From NCBI GenBank assembly GCA_029261055.1, contig JAJDCA010000051.1, forward strand, positions 9,082 through 73,081: DNA of 64,000 bases, written 5' to 3'. Below are positions 15,393-54,800 of the stretch, one piece after another (the stretch's first letter is position 1; every line of letters starts with the position of its first letter). The stretch comes from Candidatus Omnitrophota bacterium (GTDB lineage: Bacteria; Omnitrophota; Gorgyraeia; Zapsychrales; Zapsychraceae). The translations under genes were made by a program, and so were the position numbers. The notes beneath the pieces were generated by a model. It ran no database searches. It saw only the letters and a program-made list of their open reading frames with translations, and was not told the DNA's origin.

Positions 15393-17036
<1,644 letters not shown>

Positions 17037-19264: not shown

Positions 19265-22200
19265 TTAAATACGACTTAATTCTTTGGCTACATCTTCTTC
19301 TGAAACGCCAAGTAGCAAAGGTAGATTATGTACCGGTGTCATCTGAATAATCACCGGTGTCAGGCCGTTAATATTGAAGTTGAGGTTCTCTAATTCACTC
19401 TCACTGCAGTCTGGATTTTCATCAGAAAAACAAGGGACGAGGATATTAGGAAAATCAAAATCAATCTTATCGCCATTTGTTTGAAGATCAAAATTGCCAG
19501 GATTAAAATCAATCCCACCAAGATTGTTATCCTGACCTAACAAACTTTTATCGTGTAACACTTCCTCGACCATCTGCTTTATCTCTTCCATTAACAGACC
19601 TTTTACTTCCTCATCATTAATACCTCCCTGCATTACTTTAAGCTCATATTTTTCTATTAAGTTTTCAGAGAACACCTTTAATAAAAATTTATTTACAATA
19701 TCCACCAGAATTTCTTTATTTGAAAACTTTTTTAGATTAAATACAACAATAGACTTTTTAATCAAAATTTGAAAAATTCCAAATATTCTTTTAAAATTCT
19801 CGACACTAGCTTCATTTTCACCCATATCATCTAAAACACGTTTCATAAAACGAGATCTTTCTTTTTCAAATAAAGACGTAGAAAAAAAATTTTTATCTCC
19901 AATTTTTTGATTTACAATATTTTCCAAGAAATCATAACGTTTACCCATTCTATCTTTCAATAAAGTAAGATCACCTGTCTCATACAAAGCCATCATGAAA
20001 TCTTCACCATATTTATTAATAATCTTTTTTACAACTCGCAACTCATTTCCGTAATGTAATAACGGAGAAATTATTTTGTTTTCTATCTCCTCCTCAGATA
20101 ATTCTCTATCGTACTTCGGACTCAAGAATTCAAATGCTTCCGGATTTTTTCTAAATACCTCCTTCAGTGTTTTTTCCTGTAAATACGTAGCGAATCCTTC
20201 TCCTAAATAATTCCCCAACAAACCTGTTAAACTCAAATAATCCTTACTATGCCATTGTTCATGTATTACTGCAGCAAGAAAATCTAACGGAGTCTCTATT
20301 GATGAAATCAAACTTATTCCTTGTCTTTCTTTCCCTCCTATTATCTCAATAAATTCCCCGATAGAATCGGAATCATGAAATTCAAAAATATCATCCAGCA
20401 ATGACCCCGGCTTAATCATGAATACTAAATTTTCATCAAAATCAGGCATATTTTCTTTTACTATTTTAAATATTTTCTTTTGCTGAGAAGATAATTTTAT
20501 CTTGTTGTATTTTCTAAGAACTTTTACTCGAGATTGAAAACTATTTGCAAAGCTAAATTCTTTCCTTAAAAGCATTGCCTTTTTCACTTTTTTAAAATTT
20601 CCATGTATAATCCTTACTTTCTCCTTTTGATTATTAATTTCATCTCTTGATGTATCTAGTTCTATTAAAATATTCAAAACATTCTTTTCCTTTTGTAATT
20701 TTTCCGGACTCCATTCTTTTATATATCGATCCATATTTCTTATTATTTCTTCTCCAGAAAAATCTTCAAAATCACTATCATTACCTACGCCGATCATCAT
20801 AGCTCTATCCAAACCACTCTCGACAGAATACCCCTTATGCCCTCGCTTTTTGGATTTAAAAGAAACACCCTGAACATCATTCCGAAACCTTTTCGCTAAT
20901 AAAATAGCGGCGAGAAGTTTCATAAAATTACCAAATTCCCCTCTGGACTGATGCCCGATGGTGGAATCATTTGAAAAATTTAGTATCAAGTTTTCCCTGT
21001 TTGAACTTCTTTTGAGTACTTGCATAAAATGAGCTAATTCATGCACCAAAGTATTCGTCAGCGGATGTAAATCACGGCTCTGCGGATTAACAGTCTCAAA
21101 GGATGAAACACTGTCTGTTCTAAAATATATCGTTACCTTTCCTCTCTTCAGCTCAAATCTTCCTGATACAGGAAAATCTTCATTCAATAACTTCACATTC
21201 GTAAATCCAATCAACCCAACGGTATTTTTGACCCATTCAAAGAAGCTAACTTGTTGTTCATTAAAATATTCAGGAGAAATAACATAATCCTCTGCATCAT
21301 ATTTCGCGGCTTCCACAGATTTTTCCGCCTTTTCTTTCCGTTCTTTAAAATAAGGATCGGAAATATAATCTAATTCATTCTCATCAATACCATGCTCTGC
21401 CGCCACCCGAAGTGCTTCCTTTGGATTAACGCTCATTTGTGTCTTAATACGTCTTTTCAACAAACTGTCTCTTTTTCCATTTTCTGTATCAACATCCAAC
21501 TGCACCATAAACAGAATAAAAGATTCCTGCCATTGCTCTTTCTGCTGTCTAACCCCAATTTTCCCATCAAAGGCCTTCCCAATTTTTTTCAAATCAGATA
21601 ACGCTATCACATCAATCTGCCCTTTATTAATGTTCTTAACCACATCAAACAAATGCGTATTTCTTTCTTGATTGATCTTTAAATGAGGACTCTCTTTCTG
21701 TGTTAATCCTTTCCAATACGATGGATTCCTTCCTGTTTCCCACTCCGAATCAAAACGCTTCAGCCGGAATATTTCATCCGTGAGCGCCTTATGCGCCAAT
21801 GCCTTATAAAATTCCACCGCCACATACTTTTGAATCTTCGAAAGATAATCCTTTTCATGCCGAAACGTATCCCGCGTTTCCATAAGCGGCAGAGGAATTT
21901 GAATGATCAACCCTAATTCATCAAAATAACCCCTTAAGAATTCCGGAATAAATTCCAGAAACTCCTCTTTAACCTTGATATCAGAAACCCTTATTCCATC
22001 GCGATCAATAATCTGACTTTTCACATCCGGATCATTAGTCATGTAAATACGAAATTTTCCAAAATTAGTTGTTGCGCCAGTATCCAAAGATTTTGTGATA
22101 AAATCTGTTTCCGCCAAAACCTTTTTCCCCCTCACCTCAAGCGGAACCAACGTTCTTTTTCCATCCTTGTACCGGACAAACGAAATGGTAAATCCCTCTC

Positions 22201-25200
22201 TCTGCGCCATCCCGGCAAACAGCTTCCACGATGATTCAGACAACATTTGATCCAAAGCAGCAATACCATTGCCTTTCTTTTTAATCCGCCGTATCATGAC
22301 CCCATTTTTTAAACCTTGCCGCGCTAACTTACGGACACGTACCAACCTGATCTGCTGCCCGGATGGGTCGACATCAATCGTAAACATATACGCTTCCCCG
22401 TCATTTTTGGCAATAATCTCCAACCGATCTATCCCGGCATACAAAGCAAATTTCCCTTTGCCAAAATAACCGGAGACATCTCCCATCTGCCCCCCTTTTT
22501 CCTTATTCGACTTGGGGATGAGCATGGCTAATATCTTACCGATGGGAGGCCCTTTGCCGTCATCGGTTATTTCTTCAACAAAATCTCCTGTCTCTTCATC
22601 TTCATAATGTTCAACAACAAGATTTACGGCCTTGGCATCGGAGGAATTTTGCGCGGCTTCCGCCGCATGCCGCCCTGCTTCCTGTGCCTTCATAAGATCA
22701 GCAATACTTTGACTAGATTTTTCATTGTCCGGCTGAGCCATAATTTGTTCAATCGCGGCCATCATTTCTTCAATCGTATAAAGATCACTCTCCTCTTCCG
22801 CACTCCTCTTTTTATCTTGGTTCCAGGCTGCAATCTTTTCTACAGGCACACCGCCTTTTGTCATCACAATATCTTCTTCAGCCACGGGGTCTATTTTTCT
22901 CCTAGTATGAACCAAAGGCACATCACTTGTAAAAAACACAATAAACTTTTTGGCCTCTCCTAAATTTAAATCCTGATCCGCGCCTGGATACTTAAATTCC
23001 CTTAAAATATCTATATACTCCACCGATTCAAACGAAGAGGCCCATTGGTCCAAATAATTTTGCCGTACATCTTTGTTTTCATGATTCAAAATTTGTTTCA
23101 GCTGCCGGGTCATGACATCCAGCCCATTTTTGTCTTGAGAAATTCTTGATAAAAATCGAACCATTTTCCGAATAGTGACCACGTCCGTGCTATCTTTCAT
23201 CTCTTTTACCAGTTTATAAATTAAAGGCATAGCCTCAAGATGTTCATCTATTTCAATATTCCACCCAAACAAAAGCGCCTCCATAAATTTAATATCAATA
23301 TTGTTCGCTTGAATATCAACATCCTGATTCGACGCTAAAGAAAACAATTTTTCATAAAATGCTACCCATATCTCATTTAGATCCAGAAGCGAAGACACAC
23401 CATTGACCAGCTTCATAATCTTTTCTTGATCCTTCTTAAGTGCCTTAATAATAAATTCCATCCTTTCAGCAAAAGTATCCAAAGGAAGCCGCTGAAAAAG
23501 ACGATTCCAGTCAGGCGAACCTTCTTGAAAGAGCAAATCAAAGGCCTTGTCATATTTTTCTGTTACAGCTTCGTCCTGCTTCCTGAATAAAGCTCTTATT
23601 TCGCCATTCAAATCATTTCTAAGATCTTCCGGCACAAGATCCAAAAATGGTTTATACGCCTCTTCGGCCTGCTGCACCCACTGCTCCTGTCGACTCAACA
23701 CTTCTTTTTCCCATAAATCCTTAGCTTGATTCATAATGTCCTGTTGTTCCGAAGTGCCCTTACTCAACGGACTTTCCATAAATGCTTTAGGATCAAATAT
23801 CTTTACTTGACCCTCCTCACTGTTGTAAAACACAAAAACAGAACCGGATACGCCGACCAATTCATAATTCAAATAACCCTCCATAACAATTTCAACATGA
23901 TTCCCTTGATCATTAACAATCCTGTAATTACCTTGTGCGTATTGCTCCAAAATAAACGTGCGGTCTTCTGTTATAAAAATAACCCCCTCTCTTCCAGCCA
24001 TTATTGCATCCCCTGTTTTATAAAAGTAATCAACAATTTCTCCTCCTGGTAAAACAGCATACACTACTTTATTATCCCTGGATGATTCCAGACGCATACC
24101 TGTTTTGTGGGTTAATGGAACGTCAAAATTTGAAGCAGATATTATTTCTAAATTTTTATCATAAACCAAAAGCTGATCTTCCAAACGGATAAGCTGAGTA
24201 TCCGACTGGTTTGGCAAATTTTCATAGGATTGAAATTGATCCGGATCAACCGCCTCCATCCCATTCTCCGTGATCCTGGAAATGCCGACAGAATCTTTGC
24301 CATACGTTGTCCAGTATTTGGGTAAATTATATTTCTTTATAATTTCATTTAATTCATGTAGGTTATCAAAGCTTTCAAGCCAACCATTTGAATTATCATG
24401 CTTCTCACCTTTTAGAACAACTCCGAAATAACCATGATTTTCTCCTTTAAATGTTAAAGAAAAAGTTTCCTTTTCATTTGAAGTCATATGAATTTGTTTT
24501 GAATTCGCTACGGAACCATACGGGCTTTGAAAAACAAGCCCTTCGGACTTACTAAGATAAATAAAAATTTCCCCATCCTGATCACTAAAAAAATAGTCTA
24601 TGTTATCAATGCGTCTTTTCTTTTCCAACCTGTACAAATGTTTCCCGGATACATCCTCATACACCACCACATCCGCCTTTGGGTCGATGTAAAAAGACCT
24701 TACATCAGCTGCAATCTGAATTTTAAGGATTTGAATATCTTGATACAAAGGGTCTAAAACAAAAAGATCATTCCTTGAATTCAAAATAATAACGTACCGT
24801 CCTGAGGGGGACAGATTAGCCATCTTTAAATCGTTCAGTATAAAATTATCAGAAGTGTTAAAATAATTTTCCTTCAAGGGTAAAATCATGTACGCACCAG
24901 TTGATTTAGACTTCAAAAGAACCTGCCGCTGATTATACTCAATCAAGAAAAAGCCTTCTGCTGAATTATCCCATGTTCGGGATAGTAACTTCCCTTTACT
25001 ATACGTAGATGCGGCCAATAAAAATTTCCGTGTTATATCCGAGCCGGCCTCCTGCACTTTAAAAATTAAAAACATATTTTCATCCACTTGAAGAATCTCC
25101 GCCCCTTTTTTGATATCTGCAATCCCCTTTCCATTTTCATTTATTAATTGTTGCGTATCCCCATTATTCTTAATAAATATATATCCCTTTTCTAGATTTT

Positions 25201-28200
25201 TCTCTGCAAGAAATTTTTCTGAAGAAATTTTTATCTCAGGGGTTTCGGCCTGACTGGGCATGATGGACAAAAATTCCCTAAATTTCACCTCTTCATTTGC
25301 CCCCTCCGCATTTGTCTTTTTAACAGATGTGTGGGATGGTTGAAATTTAACCGTCTTCTTTTGATTCACAATCTCATACGAGGTATCGATTGTTTCATCG
25401 GCTTTAAGTTTAATCAACTCTGCAAAGAACAAAAAATCAACCTGTTCTTCCTGAGTTAATTCTTCTGTCTGTTGTTTTTCCGCTAAGGCAAAAAACGGTT
25501 CGGCAAACTGCAAAGGAATCGCAATAAAACTATCGGCATCGATGATCGGTAAAGATATCGGATTGTAAAAATCATAAGTGGCTAATGAAAAACTCGTTAA
25601 CGTACCGATCGCTTCTTCGGTAAAGGGCACAGCCACTAAAGGAATATCTTTGTCCTCGCCATTACGCTTACGGGTAAACTTAAAGGTTTGTTTATCCATA
25701 ATACGCGCCCCCATTTTTTTAAGGCTAAACTCCCCGTTCCAGTCAAATAACATAGGGTCTAAATAAACAGCTTTTTGCGCAATTTGGGCATACATCTTTT
25801 GATGCGGCAGAAAAACATACGCCCCCTTTGACTTTATGCCAGCGACCGTTCCGGCGATTTGTTGACGGATGGCCAGTTTAATATCTCGAACAACGGCCTG
25901 ACTCTTCTTATTATCTCCGGCCAGATTATCCAGCCCGGCCGCAATGGTGTTCACATATTTTAACTTTTCTATATCGCTTAACCCCAACTGCTCATTGTTT
26001 AAAATCCCTTCCACCATATGCTCAACGGCCACCTGCATGGGCCACCGGCCGTCATTAGAATAACGTCGTTTTGGAAAATGAATATTGCTCCGGGACGGGG
26101 CAATATCCACAAATCCGTTAAACTCAAGCATCAAAGTCTCCTGGACAAGAGCCTCGGGATTAATATCATCATTATTCATATCTTTCTCAAGGGGGATCGT
26201 TCGCAATACCTCTTCATTTCGCACAAAGGCAACCTTCGCTTTGTTTTCACGGGCATCAGAAATAACCATAACATGTTTAAGAGCCGCTTTAATATCAGAT
26301 TCCTTGACAACTTTAGCTGTTTTATCTCCTTCTCCAGGCACAAACATACGTGATAACTTCACACCATTCATTCCTTTCCCATTATCAATAATTTTAATGG
26401 TGTTCTTTGAGACCAATAATTTAATATCCTTACCTTTTCTGTCCTCTTCCGTAGGGAGAGGTTCCCCTTCAGGAACAAGAATTGTGCGATATTCCCATCC
26501 ATTAACCCGTTTTTCTTCACCCCCTTTTTGTGTGACAATACGCTGCTTCTTGTTATAAGCAAATCTTTCGCGTGCATTATCAATTAATTCACTTTGTGTA
26601 ATTTTGCTTTCTTCATATTCATCCATCTCTTCCGGGATATTACGGCCGGTTTGAATTTCAACAATGGTGCCGTGTTCTAATTCTTGCCCCTCAGCCGCCT
26701 CCCAAAATTGCTCGTGGGTTATTACTTTAATTTGAATGTACACCTGGCCGACGGAGTCTTTGAGCATAGTCAACTGATAAGCCGTATCACCCCCCTCGGC
26801 CAAGGTATACACATCAATACGTCCTTTTATTCCCGTCTCAAGCCAATCCGCGATTTGTTTAATTCCGCGCCCGAATTTTCCAATATCCCCACCCCAAGCA
26901 TCTATACTATTGGCGATAGCTTCCATAATGCCCTGCCCTTTTGGATCCCCGCTCTGAGAATCAACCTCATCCGTAAGGTTTGGTTTGGTATAATGCCCAT
27001 TCAGAATCCAGCCGATACTCTCTTCGGTATATCCATCTTTTACTAATTGCTGCACAATGGCATCATAATAAAATTCTTTTAAGCTCAAGTTAAAATCTTT
27101 TTCTTCTTTTAAAATACCCAAATTACTCAGCAACGATTTTAATTCCAATTCATCCAGCTGATCATCAGCCAGACGCCTTTGAGCCGCGGCAAAATGCTCC
27201 CAATCTATCCCTTTAAAATTTTCTTCCGGTAAGGCATATTCTGTTGCCTGAATTCGATTTTTTATTTTATCCAGTTTTTCCTGATCACCCTGACGGGTAA
27301 TCATGGCGGCATCGGAAAACTTTTCCGGTGGTAAGACTGATACTTTGGCGGATTCATAATCCTTTTGCCCGGTATTTTTAACTTGAGCTTGTATGTTAAC
27401 AAACATAGCCCCATCATCATAAATTCCCTGGATAACATGGAATGGCATCTTCTGTGCCACCAGTAAAATATCTTCCACTTCCTCTCCCATATCCATCCCG
27501 CCAGAAAAATACTTCCGTGGAACAATTGTTTCTGTAACAAAATCATAATCTTCTTTGATGTAGTCATAAACACCTACTTTAAAGGCCTCGAGGTATTGAT
27601 CATAAATTTTCTGTTTGGCCTGTTTGTCTTCAATGTCCACGCCGTCAACTTTGTTCTGGCCGATGTATATTGAGGACAAGGCATGCCTTGTCCCTACAGA
27701 ATTTTTCAATTTTCGTTTGAACCATGTGGCGAGGATCAAGGAATGATAAATCTGGCGGAGCTGGGCGAAATTGGCGCCCTCGTTGACTTCGCGTTCAATT
27801 TCGGGAATGAGGATTTCGCGGATGATGGATGTCGTAGGGGCAACCCTTGTGGTTGCCCTTTCTTTTTTGGCGGGTACAAAGCCCGCCCCTACGTTATGCC
27901 CCATCGCAACATAATCCGCCTCCAACATCACCTTCAACCGCGACTCCACCACAAACGCTGTATTGGTTTCCACATTCTCATACACCACAGCCTCAGACGG
28001 CACAATCCACACCTTGTTAAAGGTATCCACCGGAACATCCATGACGCCATATTCTTCATACGCCCGCTCATGCACCCGATCCCAAAACTCTGCCCCCAAC
28101 TCATCCCCCGGATACATCAATGAGGCAGTAATTTGTTTGAGCAAATAATCTTGGGCCAAAAGATCTCGGCCCATTTCCGTTACTCCAAACTTCTCAGGAA

Positions 28201-28582
28201 TAATACGGTCACTTTCGTACGGACTAAGGTTCACCCACAAATCCTTTTCCGGCACCGTCAGTGAGGCTAAAAAATATTTAATAAGCTTCGAACTCTCCAC
28301 TCTTAAATCTTCACCCTCAGCCTGCCCCTCCCCAGTGTCCACAATAAAATCAAACCGAAACGGTTCCTCCGGAAAAACCTTCAATCCCTTAATCAACACC
28401 GGTGCATACGGCTTACTCAACGATACCATTGCCCCCACTGCAGGAAGATTAACTACTGTTTGCGACTGTGCATTAGCAACTTGTGTCGGATGAATCACAC
28501 TCATCGTAAAAACCGTGATTACCGTAACAGCCACAAAACGAAAAAATAAAGAAAATCGTGTGTTTGTAAAATTAATATTCAT
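19265..28582 (-). CDS. Giant secreted multidomain protein (3105 aa): conserved N-terminal module, two GHKL-like ATPase motif sets, two HExxH zincin-like motifs, putative beta-propeller region
   Basis: Uninterrupted 9.3-kb ORF with a signal peptide (cleavage site ..VANA|QS). N-terminal roughly 370 aa are about 60% identical to the N-terminus of the 51381..54800 protein. Bergerat-fold motifs: EAIANSIDA ... IIDNGKGM, and QNSSDAKA ... ITDDGKGP ... GYFGKGKF. HExxH motifs: LVHELAHFMQ and VIHEQWHS. Confidence 0.8.
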   Translation of the reverse strand: MNINFTNTRFSLFFRFVAVTVITVFTMSVIHPTQVANAQSQTVVNLPAVGAMVSLSKPYAPVLIKGLKVFPEEPFRFDFIVDTGEGQAEGEDLRVESSKLIKYFLASLTVPEKDLWVNLSPYESDRIIPEKFGVTEMGRDLLAQDYLLKQITASLMYPGDELGAEFWDRVHERAYEEYGVMDVPVDTFNKVWIVPSEAVVYENVETNTAFVVESRLKVMLEADYVAMGHNVGAGFVPAKKERATTRVAPTTSIIREILIPEIEREVNEGANFAQLRQIYHSLILATWFKRKLKNSVGTRHALSSIYIGQNKVDGVDIEDKQAKQKIYDQYLEAFKVGVYDYIKEDYDFVTETIVPRKYFSGGMDMGEEVEDILLVAQKMPFHVIQGIYDDGAMFVNIQAQVKNTGQKDYESAKVSVLPPEKFSDAAMITRQGDQEKLDKIKNRIQATEYALPEENFKGIDWEHFAAAQRRLADDQLDELELKSLLSNLGILKEEKDFNLSLKEFYYDAIVQQLVKDGYTEESIGWILNGHYTKPNLTDEVDSQSGDPKGQGIMEAIANSIDAWGGDIGKFGRGIKQIADWLETGIKGRIDVYTLAEGGDTAYQLTMLKDSVGQVYIQIKVITHEQFWEAAEGQELEHGTIVEIQTGRNIPEEMDEYEESKITQSELIDNARERFAYNKKQRIVTQKGGEEKRVNGWEYRTILVPEGEPLPTEEDRKGKDIKLLVSKNTIKIIDNGKGMNGVKLSRMFVPGEGDKTAKVVKESDIKAALKHVMVISDARENKAKVAFVRNEEVLRTIPLEKDMNNDDINPEALVQETLMLEFNGFVDIAPSRSNIHFPKRRYSNDGRWPMQVAVEHMVEGILNNEQLGLSDIEKLKYVNTIAAGLDNLAGDNKKSQAVVRDIKLAIRQQIAGTVAGIKSKGAYVFLPHQKMYAQIAQKAVYLDPMLFDWNGEFSLKKMGARIMDKQTFKFTRKRNGEDKDIPLVAVPFTEEAIGTLTSFSLATYDFYNPISLPIIDADSFIAIPLQFAEPFFALAEKQQTEELTQEEQVDFLFFAELIKLKADETIDTSYEIVNQKKTVKFQPSHTSVKKTNAEGANEEVKFREFLSIMPSQAETPEIKISSEKFLAEKNLEKGYIFIKNNGDTQQLINENGKGIADIKKGAEILQVDENMFLIFKVQEAGSDITRKFLLAASTYSKGKLLSRTWDNSAEGFFLIEYNQRQVLLKSKSTGAYMILPLKENYFNTSDNFILNDLKMANLSPSGRYVIILNSRNDLFVLDPLYQDIQILKIQIAADVRSFYIDPKADVVVYEDVSGKHLYRLEKKRRIDNIDYFFSDQDGEIFIYLSKSEGLVFQSPYGSVANSKQIHMTSNEKETFSLTFKGENHGYFGVVLKGEKHDNSNGWLESFDNLHELNEIIKKYNLPKYWTTYGKDSVGISRITENGMEAVDPDQFQSYENLPNQSDTQLIRLEDQLLVYDKNLEIISASNFDVPLTHKTGMRLESSRDNKVVYAVLPGGEIVDYFYKTGDAIMAGREGVIFITEDRTFILEQYAQGNYRIVNDQGNHVEIVMEGYLNYELVGVSGSVFVFYNSEEGQVKIFDPKAFMESPLSKGTSEQQDIMNQAKDLWEKEVLSRQEQWVQQAEEAYKPFLDLVPEDLRNDLNGEIRALFRKQDEAVTEKYDKAFDLLFQEGSPDWNRLFQRLPLDTFAERMEFIIKALKKDQEKIMKLVNGVSSLLDLNEIWVAFYEKLFSLASNQDVDIQANNIDIKFMEALLFGWNIEIDEHLEAMPLIYKLVKEMKDSTDVVTIRKMVRFLSRISQDKNGLDVMTRQLKQILNHENKDVRQNYLDQWASSFESVEYIDILREFKYPGADQDLNLGEAKKFIVFFTSDVPLVHTRRKIDPVAEEDIVMTKGGVPVEKIAAWNQDKKRSAEEESDLYTIEEMMAAIEQIMAQPDNEKSSQSIADLMKAQEAGRHAAEAAQNSSDAKAVNLVVEHYEDEETGDFVEEITDDGKGPPIGKILAMLIPKSNKEKGGQMGDVSGYFGKGKFALYAGIDRLEIIAKNDGEAYMFTIDVDPSGQQIRLVRVRKLARQGLKNGVMIRRIKKKGNGIAALDQMLSESSWKLFAGMAQREGFTISFVRYKDGKRTLVPLEVRGKKVLAETDFITKSLDTGATTNFGKFRIYMTNDPDVKSQIIDRDGIRVSDIKVKEEFLEFIPEFLRGYFDELGLIIQIPLPLMETRDTFRHEKDYLSKIQKYVAVEFYKALAHKALTDEIFRLKRFDSEWETGRNPSYWKGLTQKESPHLKINQERNTHLFDVVKNINKGQIDVIALSDLKKIGKAFDGKIGVRQQKEQWQESFILFMVQLDVDTENGKRDSLLKRRIKTQMSVNPKEALRVAAEHGIDENELDYISDPYFKERKEKAEKSVEAAKYDAEDYVISPEYFNEQQVSFFEWVKNTVGLIGFTNVKLLNEDFPVSGRFELKRGKVTIYFRTDSVSSFETVNPQSRDLHPLTNTLVHELAHFMQVLKRSSNRENLILNFSNDSTIGHQSRGEFGNFMKLLAAILLAKRFRNDVQGVSFKSKKRGHKGYSVESGLDRAMMIGVGNDSDFEDFSGEEIIRNMDRYIKEWSPEKLQKEKNVLNILIELDTSRDEINNQKEKVRIIHGNFKKVKKAMLLRKEFSFANSFQSRVKVLRKYNKIKLSSQQKKIFKIVKENMPDFDENLVFMIKPGSLLDDIFEFHDSDSIGEFIEIIGGKERQGISLISSIETPLDFLAAVIHEQWHSKDYLSLTGLLGNYLGEGFATYLQEKTLKEVFRKNPEAFEFLSPKYDRELSEEEIENKIISPLLHYGNELRVVKKIINKYGEDFMMALYETGDLTLLKDRMGKRYDFLENIVNQKIGDKNFFSTSLFEKERSRFMKRVLDDMGENEASVENFKRIFGIFQILIKKSIVVFNLKKFSNKEILVDIVNKFLLKVFSENLIEKYELKVMQGGINDEEVKGLLMEEIKQMVEEVLHDKSLLGQDNNLGGIDFNPGNFDLQTNGDKIDFDFPNILVPCFSDENPDCSESELENLNFNINGLTPVIIQMTPVHNLPLLLGVSEEDVAKELSRI

Positions 28583-28807
28583 ACATAATAAGTATAAAAC
28601 ATATTAATACTACAAACTACCTGATCAGCTAACTATTTCACCTATTTTTACCTTTTAAAAAGAATGTAAGTCAAGTAATATCAATAATTTAGTAGGATTT
28701 TAAGAAAACGATTGCTTTCGATGGGAATTTCTTCACAGGAGCAGCTTCTTACATAAAAATACGACAGACTCTTTTTTTGAAATCCAAAAAAATTCCTGTC
28801 GTATTTC

Positions 28808-39384: not shown

Positions 39385-39927
39385 TTAATTATTATTTCCT
39401 TCTTGCTTCTTAAACTCTTCCAACAACCTTTTAATATCCTGGTCTGCATTGCGCGCGACCTGAGTGCAAATAAAAATCAAAAGAGAAAACTGCCAACAAT
39501 CTTCAGGCCCCTTGATAAGACCTGTCTGCACATTTTCTTCTTTTTGTAAAATATTTTCGTAATGCTTAATAGCGCCTGAGAGCTTACCTTCATGAATATC
39601 CAAAGACATTGTTTTATTATCATAGCGCAATGATGGCATACGTACACCACGAACAAGGAGAAAATTAATCAAAGAATTTTCATCAATTCTTTCCTCTTCA
39701 CCAAATTCAAAACCTTGAAACTGTGGATGATTGGGCGGAACAATAATGGAAGGTTTCTCGACAACAACCTCTCCTTTACGTACAATCGTATCTCCCACAT
39801 TAATAGTCGATTCTGATAATAAAATATACGGTACGTGCGTATCGCCCAACGTCAAAAGAGCCTGAATACGCGACCGGATAATTTCCGTACTTTTTAAAGC
39901 TTTATACCAAGATTTCTCAAAACTCAT
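39385..39927 (-). CDS. Hypothetical protein (180 aa)
   Basis: ORF with gene-like codon periodicity and spacing; no recognizable motifs. Confidence 0.4.
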   Translation of the reverse strand: MSFEKSWYKALKSTEIIRSRIQALLTLGDTHVPYILLSESTINVGDTIVRKGEVVVEKPSIIVPPNHPQFQGFEFGEEERIDENSLINFLLVRGVRMPSLRYDNKTMSLDIHEGKLSGAIKHYENILQKEENVQTGLIKGPEDCWQFSLLIFICTQVARNADQDIKRLLEEFKKQEGNNN

Positions 39928-40016: not shown

Positions 40017-40109
40017 CTGGCGGAGGAGGAGAGATTCGAACTCTCGAGCCATCTTACGACAGCCACACGCTTTCCAAGCGTGCGCCTTCAACCACTCGGC
40101 CACCCCTCC
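40017..40109 (-). tRNA. tRNA-Ser (anticodon GGA), class II, CCA encoded
   Basis: Reverse complement is GGAGGGGTGGCCGAGTGGTTGAAGGCGCACGCTTGGAAAGCGTGTGG...GAGAGTTCGAATCTCTCCTCCTCCGCCA. Anticodon stem CACGC/GCGTG, loop TTGGAAA. Confidence 0.85.
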
Positions 40110-40228
40110 AAAATTTGTCCATCAATGAAAAGGCAGTATACTAGGGACTTTACGAAATATCAAGAATTTTGAATGTATTAAGAAATAATATTAAAGGACA
40201 TCCTTAACTCGTGTGCTTGGGTATAATT

Positions 40229-41242
40229 CTACTCCCCATTTTTCTTCCCCGTAATCCGCCTTATTTCTTTATCAAAGTCGGAAATGTAATCTTTATCCTG
40301 TTGAATACGATACGCTTCATATTCCTTATGCGCCAAAGCTAAAGCCACTTCATGACTGATTGAACCCGCATTAGTCAAAATTTCATATTCGCTGAATTTT
40401 AAAAAAGCATTCAACTTTTTAATCCAATCTTTCATATACATTGGAATATTACGAATAGCCTGTAATTCCGCAAAATCTAAATACATCGTAACAATACGGT
40501 TTAGATGATCGAGTTCCGGTTTGTTTAAATAATTCTTGGCCGTGGCAACGTCACTTGGCAGAACTTTACCCTTGGGCTCTTTTCGCCATGCCGTTAACCC
40601 CATATTAGGTTTGGCACTATTGGCCCGTTTGGCAACAATTTCAGCGGCAGTTTTTCCGGTAATGGCAAAATGCAGTTTATTTTGAACGGTCGCAAAAAAC
40701 TTTTTTGTATCTTCAGCCTTAGCAGAATAATCCATCGAAGTGGCATAAATATCTGTAATTTTTTGATACATCATCCTTTCGCTTGAACGAATATCTCTTA
40801 TTTCTTCAAGCAAATCATCGAAAAATCGGGTGCTGAAGCGAGAACCATATTTAAAACGGTTACTATCAATAGCGAAGCCTTTATGTATATATTTCTGGAG
40901 AATTGTAATAGCCCATTGCCTAAATTGTGTACCCCGCTGAGAATTAACTCTATACCCTACAGCAATAATGGCCTCTAAAGAATAGAATTTTGTTTGATAT
41001 TTTTTACCATCTTCGGCAGTATGTGCAAATTTTGCACATACTGTATTTTCTTCTAATTCTTGCTCTAGAAAAATATTTTTAAGATGTTTAGTAATAACCG
41101 TTCTATCCACATCAAATAATTCCGCTATTCGTTTTTGAGGCAACCAAATATTCTCCTTAGCATACAACACCTCAATATTAACACCCCCCTCACCGGTTTG
41201 ATATACAGCAATCTGATCATCTGGTATTTTCTTTCTTTTCAT
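40229..41242 (-). CDS. RhuM-family (virulence/defense-island associated) protein
   Basis: IAVYQTGEGGVNIEVLYAKENIWLPQKRIAELFDVDRTVITKHLKNIF...YRVNSQRGTQFRQWA is collinear with the RhuM family N-terminal consensus. Confidence 0.7.
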   Translation of the reverse strand: MKRKKIPDDQIAVYQTGEGGVNIEVLYAKENIWLPQKRIAELFDVDRTVITKHLKNIFLEQELEENTVCAKFAHTAEDGKKYQTKFYSLEAIIAVGYRVNSQRGTQFRQWAITILQKYIHKGFAIDSNRFKYGSRFSTRFFDDLLEEIRDIRSSERMMYQKITDIYATSMDYSAKAEDTKKFFATVQNKLHFAITGKTAAEIVAKRANSAKPNMGLTAWRKEPKGKVLPSDVATAKNYLNKPELDHLNRIVTMYLDFAELQAIRNIPMYMKDWIKKLNAFLKFSEYEILTNAGSISHEVALALAHKEYEAYRIQQDKDYISDFDKEIRRITGKKNGE

Positions 41243-41326
41243 CTAAATATTTTCTTTTTGAACTGTTAGGAACCTATCAAAAAACCTTCCTGATCCGTGT
41301 AAGTTGCTTTGGCAATAGCCGACTTT

Positions 41327-41977
41327 TCAGCGAATTTCTGTTGATTTCAATTTCTTCACCCTATCATCAATCATACTTTTAAATTTACTATTTTTAAGAT
41401 TTTCTGAAACTTCTTCATACTTCATGTCTGCTAATTTAGCCAACTCTTTCCGACAAGAAAAACTAAATTTTTCTAAATTATCTCTTCTAATACTTAGTGA
41501 CTTATCAAAATCTGAAATCTCAGCAACAACCTTATAAAAAGCAAAAAGAATTTTCCTTGGAGCATAAATTATTAACTTACTACTCAATAAAACATCTAAT
41601 TCAAATAAAATATTTATTAACTTACTCACATAATTTATTTCTTCTTGATGAAAATCCGTATTTAATCCAGGTTTCTTTCCAGTTAACTCTAACCTAAGAA
41701 ATTCATGTGCTTTATTAAGAACCTCTTCAATTAGCTCATAATTCTTTTCTAAATTATAATGATGTTTTTTGACTTCCTTTTCTAAATTATGTTTAAGGGT
41801 CAACATAGACCATGCAGCAAAAAATGAAAAAATAACCTGTAAGTTCTCATCAGGAAGTAGCCATTTTATTAAATATAAAAGAATGCCAATAAAAAAAAGA
41901 AAAATAATTACTGATAACAATTTATTCTTTTTTTTAAAATCTTGCCATTTTTTATAAGTTTTATTTAGAATATCCAT
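41327..41977 (-). CDS. Hypothetical membrane protein (N-terminal TM helices, coiled-coil tail)
   Basis: Two predicted TM segments (LLSVIIFLFFIGILLYLIKWLL; FSFFAAWSMLTL). No known motifs. Very AT-rich compared with its neighbours. Confidence 0.4.
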   Translation of the reverse strand: MDILNKTYKKWQDFKKKNKLLSVIIFLFFIGILLYLIKWLLPDENLQVIFSFFAAWSMLTLKHNLEKEVKKHHYNLEKNYELIEEVLNKAHEFLRLELTGKKPGLNTDFHQEEINYVSKLINILFELDVLLSSKLIIYAPRKILFAFYKVVAEISDFDKSLSIRRDNLEKFSFSCRKELAKLADMKYEEVSENLKNSKFKSMIDDRVKKLKSTEIR

Positions 41978-42276: not shown

Positions 42277-44560
42277 TTATTTCACTTCTATATTATCAAG
42301 ATAGACATCTTGCTGACGCGCCTCAATTTCAAACGTACTGACATTAATTGCACTGCTATTACGACTCAACGTCACCTGGTCACCAAAGGCAGTTACTATA
42401 AATGTTGTTGGACTGAAATCGACGACTATAGAATATATATTTCCCTGAACAAACTCACTAGCAAAGAAAACACTTTCAACAACCCGACCTCCAACAATCT
42501 TTTCTACAGCCTTGGTTCCATAACCATCAGTATTTCTGATCCTGTAATAATTATTGGCATCTTGCTTTAAGTTTATCGTAATAATTCCTCCAAGAGGATG
42601 TTTTTTCACAGGTTCAAAATCCACCTTAAACGCTCCTGTATCCGTCGCGGATATATTCTGCCCAATTTTTAAACCAATATTATCTCCTGTTACCACCTTG
42701 GCCCTTTGCCCTACGCTATCATACACAAACCGACCGGTGCCTCCGGCTGTCCACGTATCCGTCACTGTATATGCACCGATCGTATCCGTGCTAAAATCAT
42801 CGAAAAATAACGATGCTGGTGGTGGCTGAACGTCAGACCGTACCTCGATGTTGTCATAATAGGCATCTTGTTGACTTGTCGTAATTTCAAACGCACTAAC
42901 GTTAATGGCACTACCATTACCACTCAAGGTCACCTGATCACCAAAGGCCCTCACCGTCATCGTTGTAGGACTAAAATTAACAACTATAGAATATTTAGTC
43001 CCCTGTATATACTCACTGGCAAAAAAGACTCTTTCAACAACCCGTCTTCCAACTACTTTTTCAACACTCCTTGGACCATAACCGTCAGTATTACTAATTC
43101 TGTAATAATTACCAGCATCTTGATTTAAACTTATCATAAGACCGCCACCAGCCGGATATTTCTTCACAGGTTCAAAATCCATTTTAAACGTTCCTGTATC
43201 CGTCGCGGGTATACTCTGCCCGATTTTTAAACCAATATTATCTCCTGTTACCACTTTGGCCCTTTGCCCGGTGCTATCATACACAAACCGACCGGTGCCT
43301 CCGGCTGTCCACGTATCTGTCACTGTATATGCTCCGGTCGTGTCCGTACTGAAATCATCAAAGAACAATTGTGGATTACCGACCACATCATTAACCGTAA
43401 TGGTAATTTCTTCAAAAACCATATCCACACCATCACTCACCTCAAAACGCACTCCATCATACACCCCTGACTGATCAAAATTTGGCGTCCAACTAAATAT
43501 CTGCGTAGCGGAATTAAAACTTGCTCCATCGGGAAGAGACAATGCTGCATACGTCAATGGTTCGCCATCATCATCCGTGGCGGTTACCGTAAAACTTAAT
43601 GTTTCCCCTTCATCCACCACCTTATTGCCAATAGTATTTAATACAGGAGGATTATTAGGCTGAATGTCAGATCGCACCTCGATATTATCATAATAAGCAT
43701 CTTGCTGACTTGTCGTAATTTCAAACGCACTAACATTAATGGCGCTGCCATTACCACTCAAGGTCACCTGATCACCAAAGGCCCTCACCGTCATCGTTGT
43801 AGGATTAAAATTGACAACTATAGAATATTTAGCCCCCTGTATATACTCACTAGCAAAAAAGACTCTTTCAACAACCCGTCTTCCAACTACTTTTTCAACA
43901 CTCCTTGGACCATACCCGTCGGTATTACTAATCCTGTAATAATGATCGGCATCTTGCCTTAAATTTATCATAAGGCCTCCACCAGCCGGATATTTCTTCA
44001 CAGGTTCAAAATCCACCTTAAACGTTCCTGTATCCGTCGCGGGTATACTCTGCCCGATTCTTAAACCAATATTATCCCCTGTTAACACTTGACTTCTTTG
44101 CCCTGCACCATCATACACAAATCGACCGGTTCCTCCTGATGTCCACGTATCCGTCACCGTGTACGATCCTGTCGTATCCGTACTAAAGTCATCAAAGAAC
44201 AATTGTGGATTACCGACCACATCATTAACCGTAATGGTGATTTCTTTAAAATCTATATCCTTTCCATCACTCACCTCAAAACGTACTCCATCATACACCC
44301 CTGACTGATCAAAACCTGGCGTCCAACTAAATATCTGCGTAGCGGAATTAAAACTTGCTCCATCGGGAAGAGACAAAGCTGTATACGTTAATGGCTCTCC
44401 ATCAACATCGGTGGCTGTTACTATAAAACTTAGTGTTTGTCCTTCATCCACCGATTTATTTTCAATAGGATTTACTACCGGGGAATTATTTGGGAGCTCA
44501 TAAACAAAAATATCAGCATTCCCGTTTCTAAAATCTTCCCACACAATACGTCTTGTGTCG
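42277..44560 (-). repeat. Tandem 834-bp coding repeats (three copies, two nearly identical) at the 3' end of the S8 protease gene
   Basis: The antisense ORFs at 42868..43128 and 43702..43962 are near-identical, which marks the period. The protein shows (Ig-like + X domain) x2 followed by a third X domain. Confidence 0.8.
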
Positions 44561-51380: not shown

Positions 51381-54300
51381 CTAATTCAAACGCGACACAT
51401 TATACTCTTCATTTTCTTCATTACGAGGTACAAGGCCTAAGAGGGGTAAAATACTATTAATCGGCGTAAAATCCATAAACACCGGTGAAAACACAACACC
51501 ATCCTCGAGCAAGGGCTCCAACTGCGCAGGGTCAAATTGAATGTCCACCCCGCTACCCCCTCGATTGAGGTCGATTTCGTTCATGTCGATACCACCGACC
51601 ATTGAATCATCGACATCATCTTTATCTTCTTTGAAAATATGATTACTTAGCCAACTTTCCCTACCCTTCAAAACAGCATCAGCAAATTCCCGAGAAAATT
51701 CTGCAGGTTTTTTTGACTGGGTAATCGCGGCATTTACCAAAACAGCATTAAACCCCATTTCCATAGCTTCTTGCGCATGTTCAGGGGAACTTATGCCTGC
51801 CTCAGCAATTAATTGAATATCAGGTCGAATCCCTCTAGACCAAATCATAATATTTTTTATTAATTTTTTACCCTCTTCTGTTCCCAATCCACCACCTGAG
51901 CCTGGTTGTGTGCCTTCGATACGCAACCCAACGACTTGTTTTAATTCTAGTATTTCGTTTAACATTTTTTTAGACATTGTTTTTCCAATTAAGGGGAAAA
52001 TCTTAATATCCTTATTAAGATTAACCAACACTTTAACAGCATCAATGATGTCATTATTTTTTGTCATTAGATTGTCATCTCTAATTTCAAGTTTAAGGTA
52101 AGGCGTTTGTACTAATTGGACTCCTAGCGCTGCCATTATTATAGCTTCCTCTTGGTTTTGAACTCTACTAGTGTTAACCATCGTGATAAATTCTTTTGTT
52201 TCACCTAACCGCAACAATTCTTTATGCGTTGATTCTATATAAGGAACCCGCACATCTTCTGGCAATGTATTTAAACTCCCTGATTTACCTAACTTAGAAA
52301 ACCCTGCATTACTTTTAAATTTAGTATCTTGTAATATTTTTTTTGCCTCTTTAAAAGATGTTGTTTTTTTTAATTCTCTGACATCTCCTGGAAGAAAAAT
52401 AAATACTTGGGACCCAGATTCTAAAACAATATCGCGCGAAACGTTTGGAGAAAGTGTAGCAATACAAGTAGCATCAGAACAATTGTCATTACGCATATGC
52501 GTTATTGCCGTTGGAGAAATTAAAGGAAATAACTCCACCCCATTAATAACAAACCGAGTATAATTTTGAACTTCGACTACCTCTACATCAATAGTTTCCG
52601 CTGATTCAAGCTCAATTTCTCTCATGAGCCACTCTCTAATTTGGCCTTTATAATACTTAACTCCGTTATAATCACTAAAATTCCTCAAACCTCCCCAAAA
52701 ACCTCCAAACTTTAACCCGATAAATGTTTCACTTACAGATGCTTCTAACTTTACTACTTTAGAGAAAGCCTTAGCTATTTCTGTTGCAACATTTAGATAA
52801 TGCTTAAGAAGCTCTTTTTTCTTTTCCTTACTTACTCCCCCAAAAGGCAACATTTTCAAGGATATTGCCACGCCACCGTATAAATGAGATGTCCTATCTA
52901 ATTCATATACCATGTCTCGCATTATCGTTTCACGCAAAGACATCTCAGGCGCATTTTCCTCTTCCTTCTTTCTGACCATCGCCTTATCAAAATACTTTCC
53001 TAAATCATCCCAATCTATTTCTTCAGTATTGTTTATAATTAAATCTTTTCCTAATTGCGGAATCTCAGAATTTAATTTTTCATATGTTTTTGAAGAAAAT
53101 GTTGATCCTTCAACCATGAGGACCACTTTTCTATTTTGCTCAGCACGTTTACGCAGTCTTTCTTGCCTTGTCTCCTCATTGACATGAAATAATACTTCCA
53201 CGTCTGGTTCAATATTATTATTTAAATAAGCCGATGTCTCTACGCCTACGAAAAAAGCAATCTTTCTATCCCACATTTCTGTCTTCACAATTTTATTAAA
53301 AGGAGCATCCCGATCATTCAAAAATATTTCGTAACCCTCTCCAGCAACCGAGTTATCAGTAAGAGAATAGATAATATCTTTTTTAAAAAATCTTTTTAAC
53401 AATATATCTTCTACAAATGTCTTAATAAAAGTTTTCTTACCTGTACCGCTTAAACCTGCAATTCTAATAAATAACGCTCTTTTTTCATTATGCGAAGCTA
53501 ATTTTTTATCAATTATGTCCAAAAGCTCTTTGCTTCCCTCAAATACATTTTTGGATTTAACATACCCTTTTTTAATCTTTTCTTCAAAAGTCATCGTCGA
53601 AGCATCCACCTCATCTTTCTTCGGTGTTACACTCATCGCAAAGTCAAAGGTAGCGCCTACAATTGAATTTTCAATTTGTGTTGGATTAAAAGCTGGGGTG
53701 AATCGCATGGCAGCATCTTTGAATCCCCCTGAGAAATACTTCCTCGGGATGACTTCCTGGCTTAATGTATCGTACTCTTCCTTAATATAATCAAACACCC
53801 CTGTCTTAAACGCTTGCATGTATCGATCATAAATTTGATTGTTAACCGTCTTGTCTTCAATCGCAACACCAGCGACTTTGTTTTGGTCAACGTAGACTTG
53901 GAAAAGGATACTTCCTTTGATGGTTTCTTTGTACCATTTGGCGAGGATCAGGGAATGGTACATCTGTCGTAGTGATGCGAAATTTTGGCCTTCGTTGACT
54001 TCGCGTTCGATTTCGGGAAGGATGATTTCGCGAATGATTTCGGTGGAATCCCCTCGCAACTGATCTTCACCGAAGGTTGCTCGGGGCTCGGCGTTGGAAT
54101 TATTATTGTTCAACGCCTCGTAATCTTCCTCCAACATCACTTTCAGCCGACTGTTAACGATGTACACCGTATTCTCATGCTCATACACCGTTGCACTCTC
54201 CGGCATGATCCAAACTTTGTTAAAGGTGTTCACTGGGATTTCTGTCACCCCATATTCTTTCTCGGCTCGTTCATAGACCCTCGCCCAAAATTTTTCCCCC

Positions 54301-54800
54301 AACTCTTCCTCCGGATACATCAAACTCGCTGTGAGTTGTTTCAACAAATAATCTTGCGCTAATAAATCACGCCCCAAGGCGGTCTTGCCTAATTCTTCGG
54401 GAATAATTCGGTCTGGCTCATATGGCGATAAATTCACCCACAAATCATCCTTCGGCGTGGTCATGGCGGCTAGAAAATATCGGACAAGCTTTTCTGATTC
54501 TTTTTCAATTTCTTCCTGAGATTTATCCGAATGCCCACTATCAACAATAAAATTAAATCGAAACGGTTCATTTGGATGGATGGTCATGCCTTTAAGAAGT
54601 ACCGGAACAAACGCAGGACTGGGCGGCACCATAGCTCCTGGAACAGGCAGATTCAACAAACTTATACCTGCCTGTCCGGCAGGCAGGCTCTGAGAAAAGC
54701 TTGGTGGCAGAATCGTACAAAACGCAAAATATACAGACAAAATGCAAGAAAATACCGAATAACCAAAGCTTTTACGCTTTTTTTGATAATACGTCCACAT
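51381..54800 (-). CDS. Large signal-anchored multidomain protein (1139 aa): conserved N-terminal module (paralog of the 3105-aa protein N-terminus) + P-loop kinase-like domain + ThiG (thiazole synthase)-like TIM barrel
   Basis: N-terminal KKRK followed by a hydrophobic anchor. About 370 aa collinear with 27480..28500. Walker A AGLSGTGKKT, APS-kinase/uridine-kinase-like. The C-terminal roughly 300 aa align with ThiG through blocks SGSQ, NTS..EEAI, YLKLEI (catalytic Lys), GSGGGLG and GFNAVLVNAAI. Confidence 0.8.
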   Translation of the reverse strand: MWTYYQKKRKSFGYSVFSCILSVYFAFCTILPPSFSQSLPAGQAGISLLNLPVPGAMVPPSPAFVPVLLKGMTIHPNEPFRFNFIVDSGHSDKSQEEIEKESEKLVRYFLAAMTTPKDDLWVNLSPYEPDRIIPEELGKTALGRDLLAQDYLLKQLTASLMYPEEELGEKFWARVYERAEKEYGVTEIPVNTFNKVWIMPESATVYEHENTVYIVNSRLKVMLEEDYEALNNNNSNAEPRATFGEDQLRGDSTEIIREIILPEIEREVNEGQNFASLRQMYHSLILAKWYKETIKGSILFQVYVDQNKVAGVAIEDKTVNNQIYDRYMQAFKTGVFDYIKEEYDTLSQEVIPRKYFSGGFKDAAMRFTPAFNPTQIENSIVGATFDFAMSVTPKKDEVDASTMTFEEKIKKGYVKSKNVFEGSKELLDIIDKKLASHNEKRALFIRIAGLSGTGKKTFIKTFVEDILLKRFFKKDIIYSLTDNSVAGEGYEIFLNDRDAPFNKIVKTEMWDRKIAFFVGVETSAYLNNNIEPDVEVLFHVNEETRQERLRKRAEQNRKVVLMVEGSTFSSKTYEKLNSEIPQLGKDLIINNTEEIDWDDLGKYFDKAMVRKKEEENAPEMSLRETIMRDMVYELDRTSHLYGGVAISLKMLPFGGVSKEKKKELLKHYLNVATEIAKAFSKVVKLEASVSETFIGLKFGGFWGGLRNFSDYNGVKYYKGQIREWLMREIELESAETIDVEVVEVQNYTRFVINGVELFPLISPTAITHMRNDNCSDATCIATLSPNVSRDIVLESGSQVFIFLPGDVRELKKTTSFKEAKKILQDTKFKSNAGFSKLGKSGSLNTLPEDVRVPYIESTHKELLRLGETKEFITMVNTSRVQNQEEAIIMAALGVQLVQTPYLKLEIRDDNLMTKNNDIIDAVKVLVNLNKDIKIFPLIGKTMSKKMLNEILELKQVVGLRIEGTQPGSGGGLGTEEGKKLIKNIMIWSRGIRPDIQLIAEAGISSPEHAQEAMEMGFNAVLVNAAITQSKKPAEFSREFADAVLKGRESWLSNHIFKEDKDDVDDSMVGGIDMNEIDLNRGGSGVDIQFDPAQLEPLLEDGVVFSPVFMDFTPINSILPLLGLVPRNEENEEYNVSRLN

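Follow-up and report, generated by a model that had tools for sequence, protein, structure and literature searches.

Introduction

Giant multi-enzyme proteins bearing signal peptides are typical of the Omnitrophota (10.64898/2026.06.07.730766; 10.1101/2023.11.21.568195), and most giants of this phylum are predicted to possess signal peptides or transmembrane helices (PMC10066038; 10.1101/2023.11.21.568195; 10.64898/2026.06.07.730766). The giants studied, comprising the 'Archaeovorins', the dockerin type and the multi-enzyme clusters, measure at least 10 thousand amino acids (kaa) or are encoded by open reading frames (ORFs) of more than 20 kb, and they are classed by dockerin, TSP3, C39 and SecA-like domains and by many transmembrane helices. 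Here, we describe a protein of 3105 amino acids (aa), encoded on the minus strand at 19265..28582 of a 64-kb window (the whole stretch of DNA analysed, 64,000 nucleotides of the Omnitrophota contig JAJDCA010000051.1). The protein shares with these giants the phylum and the placement of cytoplasm-type domains (HATPase_c, methyltransferase, PGM, PPDK_N, GNAT and HEAT domains among them) on chains predicted to be exported or membrane-bound. Its signal peptide, N-terminal head domain and C-terminal tail bracket an exchangeable cargo in a family that comprises at least 8,274 sequence clusters and has so far been seen only in Omnitrophota. No source consulted names this family, and the head/tail bracket is not mentioned in the literature on Omnitrophota giant proteins (PMC10066038; 10.1101/2023.11.21.568195; 10.64898/2026.06.07.730766).

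The catalytic part of the protein is closest to the GHL ATPases (Hsp90/GRP94/TRAP1/HtpG, MORC, MutL and type II topoisomerase), which operate as ATP-closed dimers. Cargo block R2 resembles them in its canonical motifs, its fold and a transducer-like domain, and, as in sacsin with its SR1 domain, more than one Hsp90-like module may be present in the giant chain. Unlike the GHL ATPases, the protein carries a signal peptide and a zincin fused downstream, shows 9-18% identity to the GHL matches listed, and contains no Hsp90 dimerisation, MutL endonuclease, topoisomerase or CW/zinc-finger partner domains. The zincin is comparable to the minimal zincins (WLM/Wss1-SprT, M48 HtpX/BepA, minigluzincins/projannalysin and CapP), but has no family-level sequence match to them. 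It differs from them in its third ligand, apparently a histidine (H2544) 25 residues past the second His of the motif, and in its position at the end of a GHL-ATPase block. A full-text literature search yielded no description of a fusion between a GHL ATPase and a minimal zincin.

With regard to overall architecture, the two-partner-secretion (TPS) proteins TpsA/CdiA/FHA are likewise large and exported, with a conserved domain behind the signal peptide and differing downstream parts. In contrast to these, the protein described here has no TPS domain, beta-helix repeats, linked TpsB-type transporter or immunity gene. Moreover, its head is an alpha/beta domain without known fold, its C-terminus is conserved too, and the cargoes of its family are ordinary enzymes. 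The tail is reminiscent of C-terminal sorting signals, namely the C-terminal domain (CTD) of the type IX secretion system (T9SS), PEP-CTERM, LPXTG and GlyGly-CTERM, as it is strictly terminal on proteins bearing signal peptides. Unlike these signals, it lacks a transmembrane helix with a basic cluster, the residues following its LLG motif are acidic or Ser-rich, and its motif matches no described signal. The kinds of catalytic modules and the exported multi-enzyme giants of the Omnitrophota are already known; the head-and-tail bracket, the joining of GHL ATPase and minimal zincin in one chain, and the possibly rearranged first GHKL block are new. An earlier note on this DNA had been able to map the architecture to no described family, which we confirm. 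The same note had missed the N- and C-terminal modules, which are common to thousands of proteins with ordinary enzyme domains.

A head-and-tail bracket around exchangeable cargo

The elements of the bracket in the giant protein and in a second family member of the window are as follows.

19265..28582, minus strand: giant ORF with ATG start, complete, 3105 aa plus stop codon
28469..28582, minus strand: predicted Sec/signal peptidase I (SPase-I) signal peptide, aa 1-38 (h-region 12-30, VANA↓QSQ), from a hydropathy scan and the family pattern
27497..28447, minus strand: family-wide N-terminal domain (head), aa 46-362 (LPxPG ... LIKYFLASLT, WVNLSPYE, LAQDYLLKQ, NTFNKVWIVP, LKVMLEEDY, PEIEKEVNEG.NF..LRQIY ... 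PRKYFSGG)
27071..27496, minus strand: linker of low conservation (aa 363-504) containing two D-x-A-M junction motifs
27404-27415 (DGAM), 27302-27313 (DAAM) and 53706-53717: D-x-A-[ML] sites of the window, the first two in the linker
19268..19552, minus strand: family-wide C-terminal tail, aa 3011-3105 (GGIDFNP 3022 ... GLTPVIIQMTPVHNLPLLLG 3092 ... ELSRI), common to orthologues and to members with unrelated cargo
51381..54800, minus strand: second family member, 1139 aa, with the same signal peptide, head and tail; cargo P-loop kinase-like plus ThiG-like TIM barrel

The hydropathy scan detects a sole hydrophobic segment in the 3105-aa protein, aa 12-30, followed by a Pro and the sequence VANA↓QSQ. 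An A-x-A↓Q SPase-I site in combination with an n-region of net charge +3 occurs in 177 of the 212 family members with a complete N-terminus; position -1 is Ala in 148 and position +1 is Gln in 137, and the head begins about 6 residues further on. Half of the family members have no second hydrophobic segment, and in most of the others the tail is the only one. Because the signal peptide is of the cleavable type and further hydrophobic segments are few, the whole chain, including its cargo, is predicted to cross the cytoplasmic membrane. We therefore regard the 3105-aa product as a predicted Sec-exported modular protein, in agreement with the signal peptide and extracytoplasmic location that had been read from the sequence before.

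The head, about 320 aa long with LPxPG (aa 46) and PRKYFSGG (aa 362) at its two ends, has long stretches of invariant residues. Proteins with unrelated cargoes are 50-65% identical over their first ~360 aa, and the head is better conserved among such paralogues than the cargo is among orthologues. A profile of the head, searched against 1.84 billion cluster representatives, retrieved 8,274 proteins (E<=1e-3), of which 6,659 lie at E<=1e-30, with the head starting at about residue 40-50 in all of the 150 profile matches listed. A scan covering one genome per species located at least 586 head loci, up to four of them in one assembly. Of these at least 586 loci, the best 80 come from metagenome-assembled genomes (MAGs) whose titles read Omnitrophota or Omnitrophica; the exceptions are binchicken MAGs called 'uncultured Planctomycetales' and one called simply 'bacterium'. 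Structurally, the head is modelled as an alpha/beta domain at moderate confidence (predicted local distance difference test, pLDDT, 72.5); it has no match in Pfam or NCBIfam and none in the PDB by profile. The helical toxins ClyA, NheA, colicin and Cry6 took the top ranks of a Foldseek search with the head and were rejected as noise (E 0.2-3, template modelling score 0.1-0.15). The head segments are also richer in guanine plus cytosine (GC; 0.47 for 27497-28447 and 0.45 for 53724-54668) than the rest of the two genes (0.30-0.42 and 0.36, respectively) and the window as a whole (~0.40), which could be caused by constraint, codon usage or gene conversion.

At the opposite end, the tail comprises about 70-90 aa and follows the pattern GGIDLNP..L.LQ..G.G, some 25-45 further residues, I.GF.PVI..I.PV.NLPLLLG, and a short acidic/Ser-rich end that often closes with ..LS.I. 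The strict form of this pattern is present in 168 of 241 family members, in a single copy each and at most 79 residues from the end; in these 168, a median of 19 residues follows the LLG. In the giant ORF, the tail stands in frame at the extreme end, which argues against a fusion artefact.

The short motif D-x-A-[ML] is over-represented where cargo and bracket meet. Downstream of the head, at a distance of 0-30 aa, 107 of 234 members carry it (35 expected); upstream of the tail, at a distance of 5-25 aa, it occurs in 56 of the 168 strict-pattern members (13 expected). Flanking the cargo on both sides, the motif could represent a hinge or a processing or cleavage site.

Judged from their sequences, the family members are built from an A-x-A↓Q signal peptide, a head of about 320 aa and a strictly terminal tail, bracketing exchangeable cargo. 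All three elements are found in the products of both 19265..28582 and 51381..54800. Apart from the ~18 orthologues, all relatives retrieved by the first search share only the head (~360 aa) and the last ~80 aa with the giant protein; the members seen range from 0.6 to 6.7 kaa and mostly lack internal transmembrane segments. The 1139-aa protein was previously taken for a paralog of the giant protein. This applies to its N-terminal ~360 aa (53% identity over aa 5-362) and to its tail, as read from the translation, whereas its cargo is unrelated, consisting of a P-loop kinase-like segment (GLSGTGKKT, aa 449) and a ThiG domain (PF05690, E=2.6e-23). This thiamine-type enzyme domain, placed behind a Sec signal peptide, occurs in the same window as thiC (15393-17015).

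Precomputed Pfam annotations of other head-bearing proteins reveal a wide range of cargoes. These include UbiB/ABC1 kinases with M48 peptidases; PGM, PGK, PGI (glucose-6-phosphate isomerase) and UDP-glucose pyrophosphorylase; PEP-utilising enzymes/PPDK, isocitrate lyase and malate synthase; SNF2 helicases, methyltransferases, Ser/Thr kinases and PP2C; and GGDEF, receiver, GNAT and AAA+ domains as well as HEAT and TPR repeats. The head has gone unrecognised in the source annotations because the proteins are named after their cargo, for example 'phosphoglycerate kinase' or 'AarF/UbiB family protein'. A gene for 6718 aa directly upstream of the orthologue P0002 (GCA_023247795.1, JAHFFT010000008.1, L081:1-7842) ends in the family tail (PGGIDLDP...GFTPVITHTVPITNLPLFLG); family members can therefore adjoin each other and reach at least 6.7 kaa. 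Downstream at the same P0002 locus lies a MoxR/BatA-D operon.

Predicted ATPase and zincin modules of the cargo

Between the linker and the tail, the cargo of the giant protein is divided into the following parts.

25367..27070, minus strand: block R1, aa 505-1072, with GHKL-like motifs (N-box 554, GKFGRG 568, GT 638, DNGKGM 733), conserved in 18 orthologues
23666..25366, minus strand: beta-rich spacer, aa 1073-1639 (~570 aa), of varying length among orthologues; alignments break here
22736..23665, minus strand: start of block R2, aa 1640-1949, weakly conserved in the orthologue alignment
21773..22669, minus strand: GHL-type ATPase module (aa 1972-2270), made up of a Bergerat fold and a transducer-like domain
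21209..21772, minus strand: helical connector domain, aa 2271-2458, from the secondary structure of the AlphaFold2 (AF2) model (model residues ~320-510), conserved in orthologues
20885..21208, minus strand: minimal zincin-like domain, aa 2459-2566, with invariant H2514, E2515, H2518 and H2544
19553..20884, minus strand: lineage-specific AT-rich, Lys-rich insert, aa 2567-3010, absent from ~18 orthologues
20249-20263, minus strand: second HExxH motif, HEQWH (aa 2774), within the insert, with GEGFATY 15 residues on

Whole-protein and tiled searches were carried out against Pfam, NCBIfam, PADLOC and PDB sequences, and the sole match above its cut-off was PF13589, obtained for R2 (26.3 bits, cut-off 25). 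In aa 1972-2126, R2 contains the motifs of the Bergerat fold in canonical order, with the N-box AEAAQNSSDA at 1974, G1 ITDDGKGP at 2005 and G2 GYFGKGKF at 2038. In 17 sequences, E1975, N1979 and D1982 of the N-box, D2007-G-K-G2010 and G2011 of G1, and G2038, G2041 and G2043 of G2 are invariant. The orthologue profile of R2 matches the N-domain of Hsp82 in the PDB with E=1e-5, the similarity being limited to that domain. The AF2 model of aa 1950-2566 is of good quality (pLDDT 82.9, predicted template modelling score 0.80). R2 thus agrees with the GHKL ATPases in its motif order and its alpha/beta sandwich fold, and with the GHL subgroup in its transducer-like second domain, so that we class R2 as a GHL-type ATPase module with a transducer-like domain. 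Pfam and NCBIfam searches of all 3105 aa gave no HtpG or MutL match in NCBIfam, no Hsp90 middle or C-terminal dimerisation domain, no MutL C-terminal endonuclease/dimerisation domain, and no MORC S5 or CW/coiled-coil match. We place R2 outside Hsp90, MutL and MORC proper because the further defining domains of each are missing.

The domain following the helical connector resembles WLM/SprT/M48-type minimal zincins in its fold. As in zincins, its HExxH motif is located on a helix after a beta-sheet, an apparent third metal ligand follows, and the arrangement is conserved: the motif at aa 2514 is kept in 17 of 17 complete orthologues, where it mostly reads HELAHLLE. The proposed likeness to DUF4157 has to be abandoned, as neither the protein nor the 17 orthologues match PF13699 and the orthologues mostly lack the Q of that signature. 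The second HExxH, at aa 2774, is equally present in the protein, yet it is confined to the lineage-specific insert. This insert (aa 2567-3010) has no Pfam or PDB match and no counterpart in the ~18 orthologues; its HEQWH-x15-GEGFATY sequence looks like the gluzincin signature HExxH...E. For a chain of this composition, 0.056 HExxH motifs are expected by chance, and two or more arose in 30 of 20,000 shuffles, so two such motifs in one chain are unlikely by chance. As a whole, the earlier proposal of ATPase and metalloprotease modules on a secreted protein is upheld by the GHL-type ATPase module and at least one conserved zincin-like HExxH domain.

Block R1 contains a further set of GHKL-like motifs, E..N..DA (EAIANSIDA 554), GQFG.G, GT and D.G.GM (IIDNGKGM 731), all invariant among the orthologues. 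Their order, with the N-box followed by a G2-like motif, a G3-like GT and then G1, is non-canonical, so the claim of two canonical Bergerat motif sets in the earlier note holds for R2 and is not established for R1. Similarity of the R1 module (aa 540-760) to known families is weak, with 13 bits to Pfam HATPase_c and profile matches to HtpG (E=0.003, G1 only) and GyrB (E=0.04, the strands preceding G1). Comparing R1 with R2 by hhalign gave E=5.5e-4 at a probability of 30%. R1 is possibly a rearranged GHKL/Bergerat module, its motif order resembling that of a fold whose G1 hairpin has been shifted past the C-terminal half.

The spacer between R1 and R2 was judged by eye to be rich in beta-structure. 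It shows no Pfam match at E<=10, no PDB match and no internal repeats by self-BLAST, while two orthologues, P0016 and P0010, possess WD40 or PQQ repeats in the equivalent spacer. A beta-propeller would be plausible here. The propeller-like region of ~900 aa described before shrinks to about 570 aa and finds its repeat matches in these two orthologues only.

Integrity of the giant ORF

The reading of the gene as a single uninterrupted ORF, the largest in the window, proved correct, the runner-up measuring 1630 aa. A 78.6-kb NCBI contig encodes a protein identical to the 3105-aa product (P0001). Among the retrieved relatives, BLAST identified ~18 co-linear orthologues of 2282-3699 aa in other Omnitrophota genomes, and all taxon-named relatives are labelled Omnitrophota or Omnitrophica. 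In these ~18 independent genomes, the order of head, R1, spacer, R2 with zincin, and tail is retained. The N-terminal ~1100 aa are 31-42% identical to the orthologues; after a break of variable length, a second block (aa ~1600-2566) aligns at 24-33% identity and is followed by the short C-terminal tail.

GC content is 0.47 in the first 360 codons, 0.30 for aa 2567-3010, 0.37 in the tail and ~0.40 elsewhere. The composition shift noticed earlier is thus present, although it covers the last ~17% of the protein and not the C-terminal third. The probability that the AT-rich part is stop-free by chance is ~8e-21, for which reason we consider aa 2567-3010 to be coding.

28750-28805, minus strand: hairpin (ATACGACAG...CTGTCGTAT) followed by a T-run, directly 3' of a thioredoxin-reductase-like (TrxB-like) gene and upstream of the giant ORF

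This hairpin was read by eye and missed by the terminator scan; promoter and terminator scans around the giant ORF revealed nothing exceeding shuffles. The intergenic gap between the TrxB-like gene and the giant ORF is 225 bp. Owing to the hairpin with its T-run and to this gap, the giant ORF probably has its own transcription unit.

Genomic surroundings

The neighbours of the giant ORF are housekeeping genes, namely groEL, which is the gene directly downstream, thiC, an M48 peptidase, the TrxB-like gene and subunits of pyruvate:ferredoxin oxidoreductase. Two orthologue loci compared for synteny have neither common neighbours nor a linked transporter. The other features of the window are listed below.

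42277-47169, minus strand: 1630-aa protein with signal peptide, fervidolysin-like prodomain, S8 subtilase, seven TIGR04275 beta-propeller repeats, and He_PIG, PKD and cadherin-like domains
40018-40109: tRNA-Ser(GGA), adjoining a low-GC patch (0.33)
40229-41242: RhuM-family gene, in the low-GC patch beside tRNA-Ser(GGA)
41327-41977: ORF without Pfam match, in the same patch
39385-39927: ORF without match, on the opposite side of tRNA-Ser(GGA)

The 1630-aa subtilase contains neither the family head nor the family tail. The patch at 40018-41977 looks like a small tRNA-adjacent island. Across the window, the minus strand holds all but two of the ORFs of at least 150 aa taken as genes. The GC skew is negative throughout and falls monotonically, as would fit a single replichore with no skew switch in the window.

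Proposed function and alternatives

We postulate that cleavage of the signal peptide after Sec export would leave an N-terminal Gln, and that head and tail would take all family members to one destination, which may be the surface or envelope of the cell or else a host or prey cell attached to it. There, head and tail may act via a common machinery, or they may be removed at the D-x-A-M junctions. For a function common to thousands of unrelated proteins, we infer that sorting, anchoring or release at a common destination is the simplest. In the giant protein, the two GHKL-type modules with the beta-rich domain between them could form an intramolecular ATP-driven clamp that holds or remodels a client, and the zincin domain beside the clamp could cut the client protein held there. 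This overall explanation, an exported member of the bracket family with a destination set by head and tail and an ATP-driven clamp-protease as cargo, is the one we favour, with moderate confidence.

The destination itself is constrained by the cargo. As the ATP-binding residues are under purifying selection and the family includes kinases and glycolytic enzymes, the destination should contain ATP. Such a need would favour the cytoplasm of a host or prey cell, or an open junction between predator and prey, over an ordinary periplasm. Delivery into a host or prey cell is plausible because ATP-dependent domains are placed outside the producer's cytoplasm. Molecules are transferred from the Omnitrophota predator V. 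archaeovorus to its prey, with open cytoplasmic contact also reported (PMC13153191). In its most far-reaching form, which we put forward tentatively and consider less likely than not, head and tail would constitute a new sorting route of the Omnitrophota, which are ultra-small and depend on hosts. This route would export a 'second proteome' of cytoplasm-type enzymes (chaperone-proteases, kinases, glycolytic enzymes and helicases) to the surface or into host or prey cytoplasm, with the D-x-A-M motifs as possible release sites and the 3105-aa protein as an ATP-driven unfoldase/protease acting on host proteins.

Several observations weigh against the favoured explanation. The clamp relies on one proven module, since the Bergerat fold of R1 is only a possibility. 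The orthologues lie among unrelated housekeeping genes, with no linked gene for a dedicated transporter or partner. The apparent restriction of the head to the Omnitrophota so far draws on how the records of the best 80 loci, out of at least 586, are titled, and many head-bearing MAGs bear the title 'uncultured Planctomycetales'. Lastly, the description of the head as having no known fold is provisional on account of the pLDDT of only 72.5.

Among the alternatives, a surface coat, adhesin or scaffold survives best, and we consider it unlikely. Here, the enzyme-like domains would serve for binding or be mere relics, with no ATP used, and head and tail would anchor or polymerise the proteins in the envelope, the 'velamen' coat of these cocci. 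Such a role would suit the periplasm and the cell exterior, which are without ATP, and it is compatible with an exported protein that has no further transmembrane segment, with the beta-rich spacer and with the WD40 or PQQ repeats of the orthologues. Adhesion and coat functions have also been proposed for Omnitrophota giant proteins (PMC10066038). In contrast, all nucleotide-binding signature residues of R2 and the HExxH...H ligands stay invariant although the orthologues share only 28-39% identity overall, which argues for retained catalysis, and the protein showed no adhesin repeats. An RTX or cadherin adhesin, named beforehand as a case against the earlier reading, was rejected, as the giant ORF contains no RTX nonapeptide, cadherin or Ig-like repeats.

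We see a contact-dependent weapon or polymorphic toxin, as envisaged in the earlier note, as less likely still. The head would then serve as a trafficking domain of the kind known from TPS/CdiA, Rhs or LXG proteins, and the C-terminal modules would be injected toxins. The exported giant with its conserved N-terminus and variable downstream part does follow the logic of TpsA/CdiA, it carries a protease and an ATPase, and predatory Omnitrophota exist. However, no TPS, FHA, Rhs, LXG, PT-TG or other toxin domain was matched in Pfam or NCBIfam and nothing was matched in PADLOC; the gene downstream is groEL and not a small immunity-like gene, and the compared loci show no synteny. Furthermore, the cargoes of the family are of the housekeeping type (PGK, PGI, PGM and methyltransferases) and include no toxins, and it is the internal part that varies and the C-terminus that is kept, an arrangement opposite to that of polymorphic toxins. 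A CDI/Rhs toxin was rejected. A defence system and a T9SS cargo were likewise rejected; the protein has no Por_Secre_tail or TIGR04183 match.

Similarly improbable is a membrane-tethered chaperone-protease facing the cytoplasm, which would retain its signal peptide as an uncleaved anchor, or have been assigned the wrong topology, and exert quality control over the giant proteins of its own producer. This would solve the ATP problem, as the cargo domains of the family are ATP-dependent and of cytoplasmic type, and many giant proteins have been read as anchored in the inner membrane (10.64898/2026.06.07.730766). The positive n-region and the Pro followed by A-x-A↓Q, seen in the 177 of 212 members mentioned above, nonetheless form a textbook cleaved Sec signal that leaves the C-terminus outside, and most members have no second transmembrane segment that could return the chain. 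An assembly or annotation artefact, in which a frameshift or mis-assembly had joined several genes, might be suspected from the unusual length and the sharp composition change in the last ~1.7 kb, but the block order shared by ~18 independent genomes, the in-frame tail and the stop-free insert leave it practically no probability.

Implications for the Omnitrophota

The Omnitrophota are abundant uncultivated nanobacteria with many giant exported proteins that are functionally unexplained, and the shared head and tail provide a handle on them. Should head and tail prove to be a sorting device, the family members would together form a catalogue of what Omnitrophota cells place outside the cytoplasm, and the head would represent a novel fold as well as a novel function. 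The ATP paradox posed by Sec signal peptides on ATPases, kinases and glycolytic enzymes would then become directly testable.

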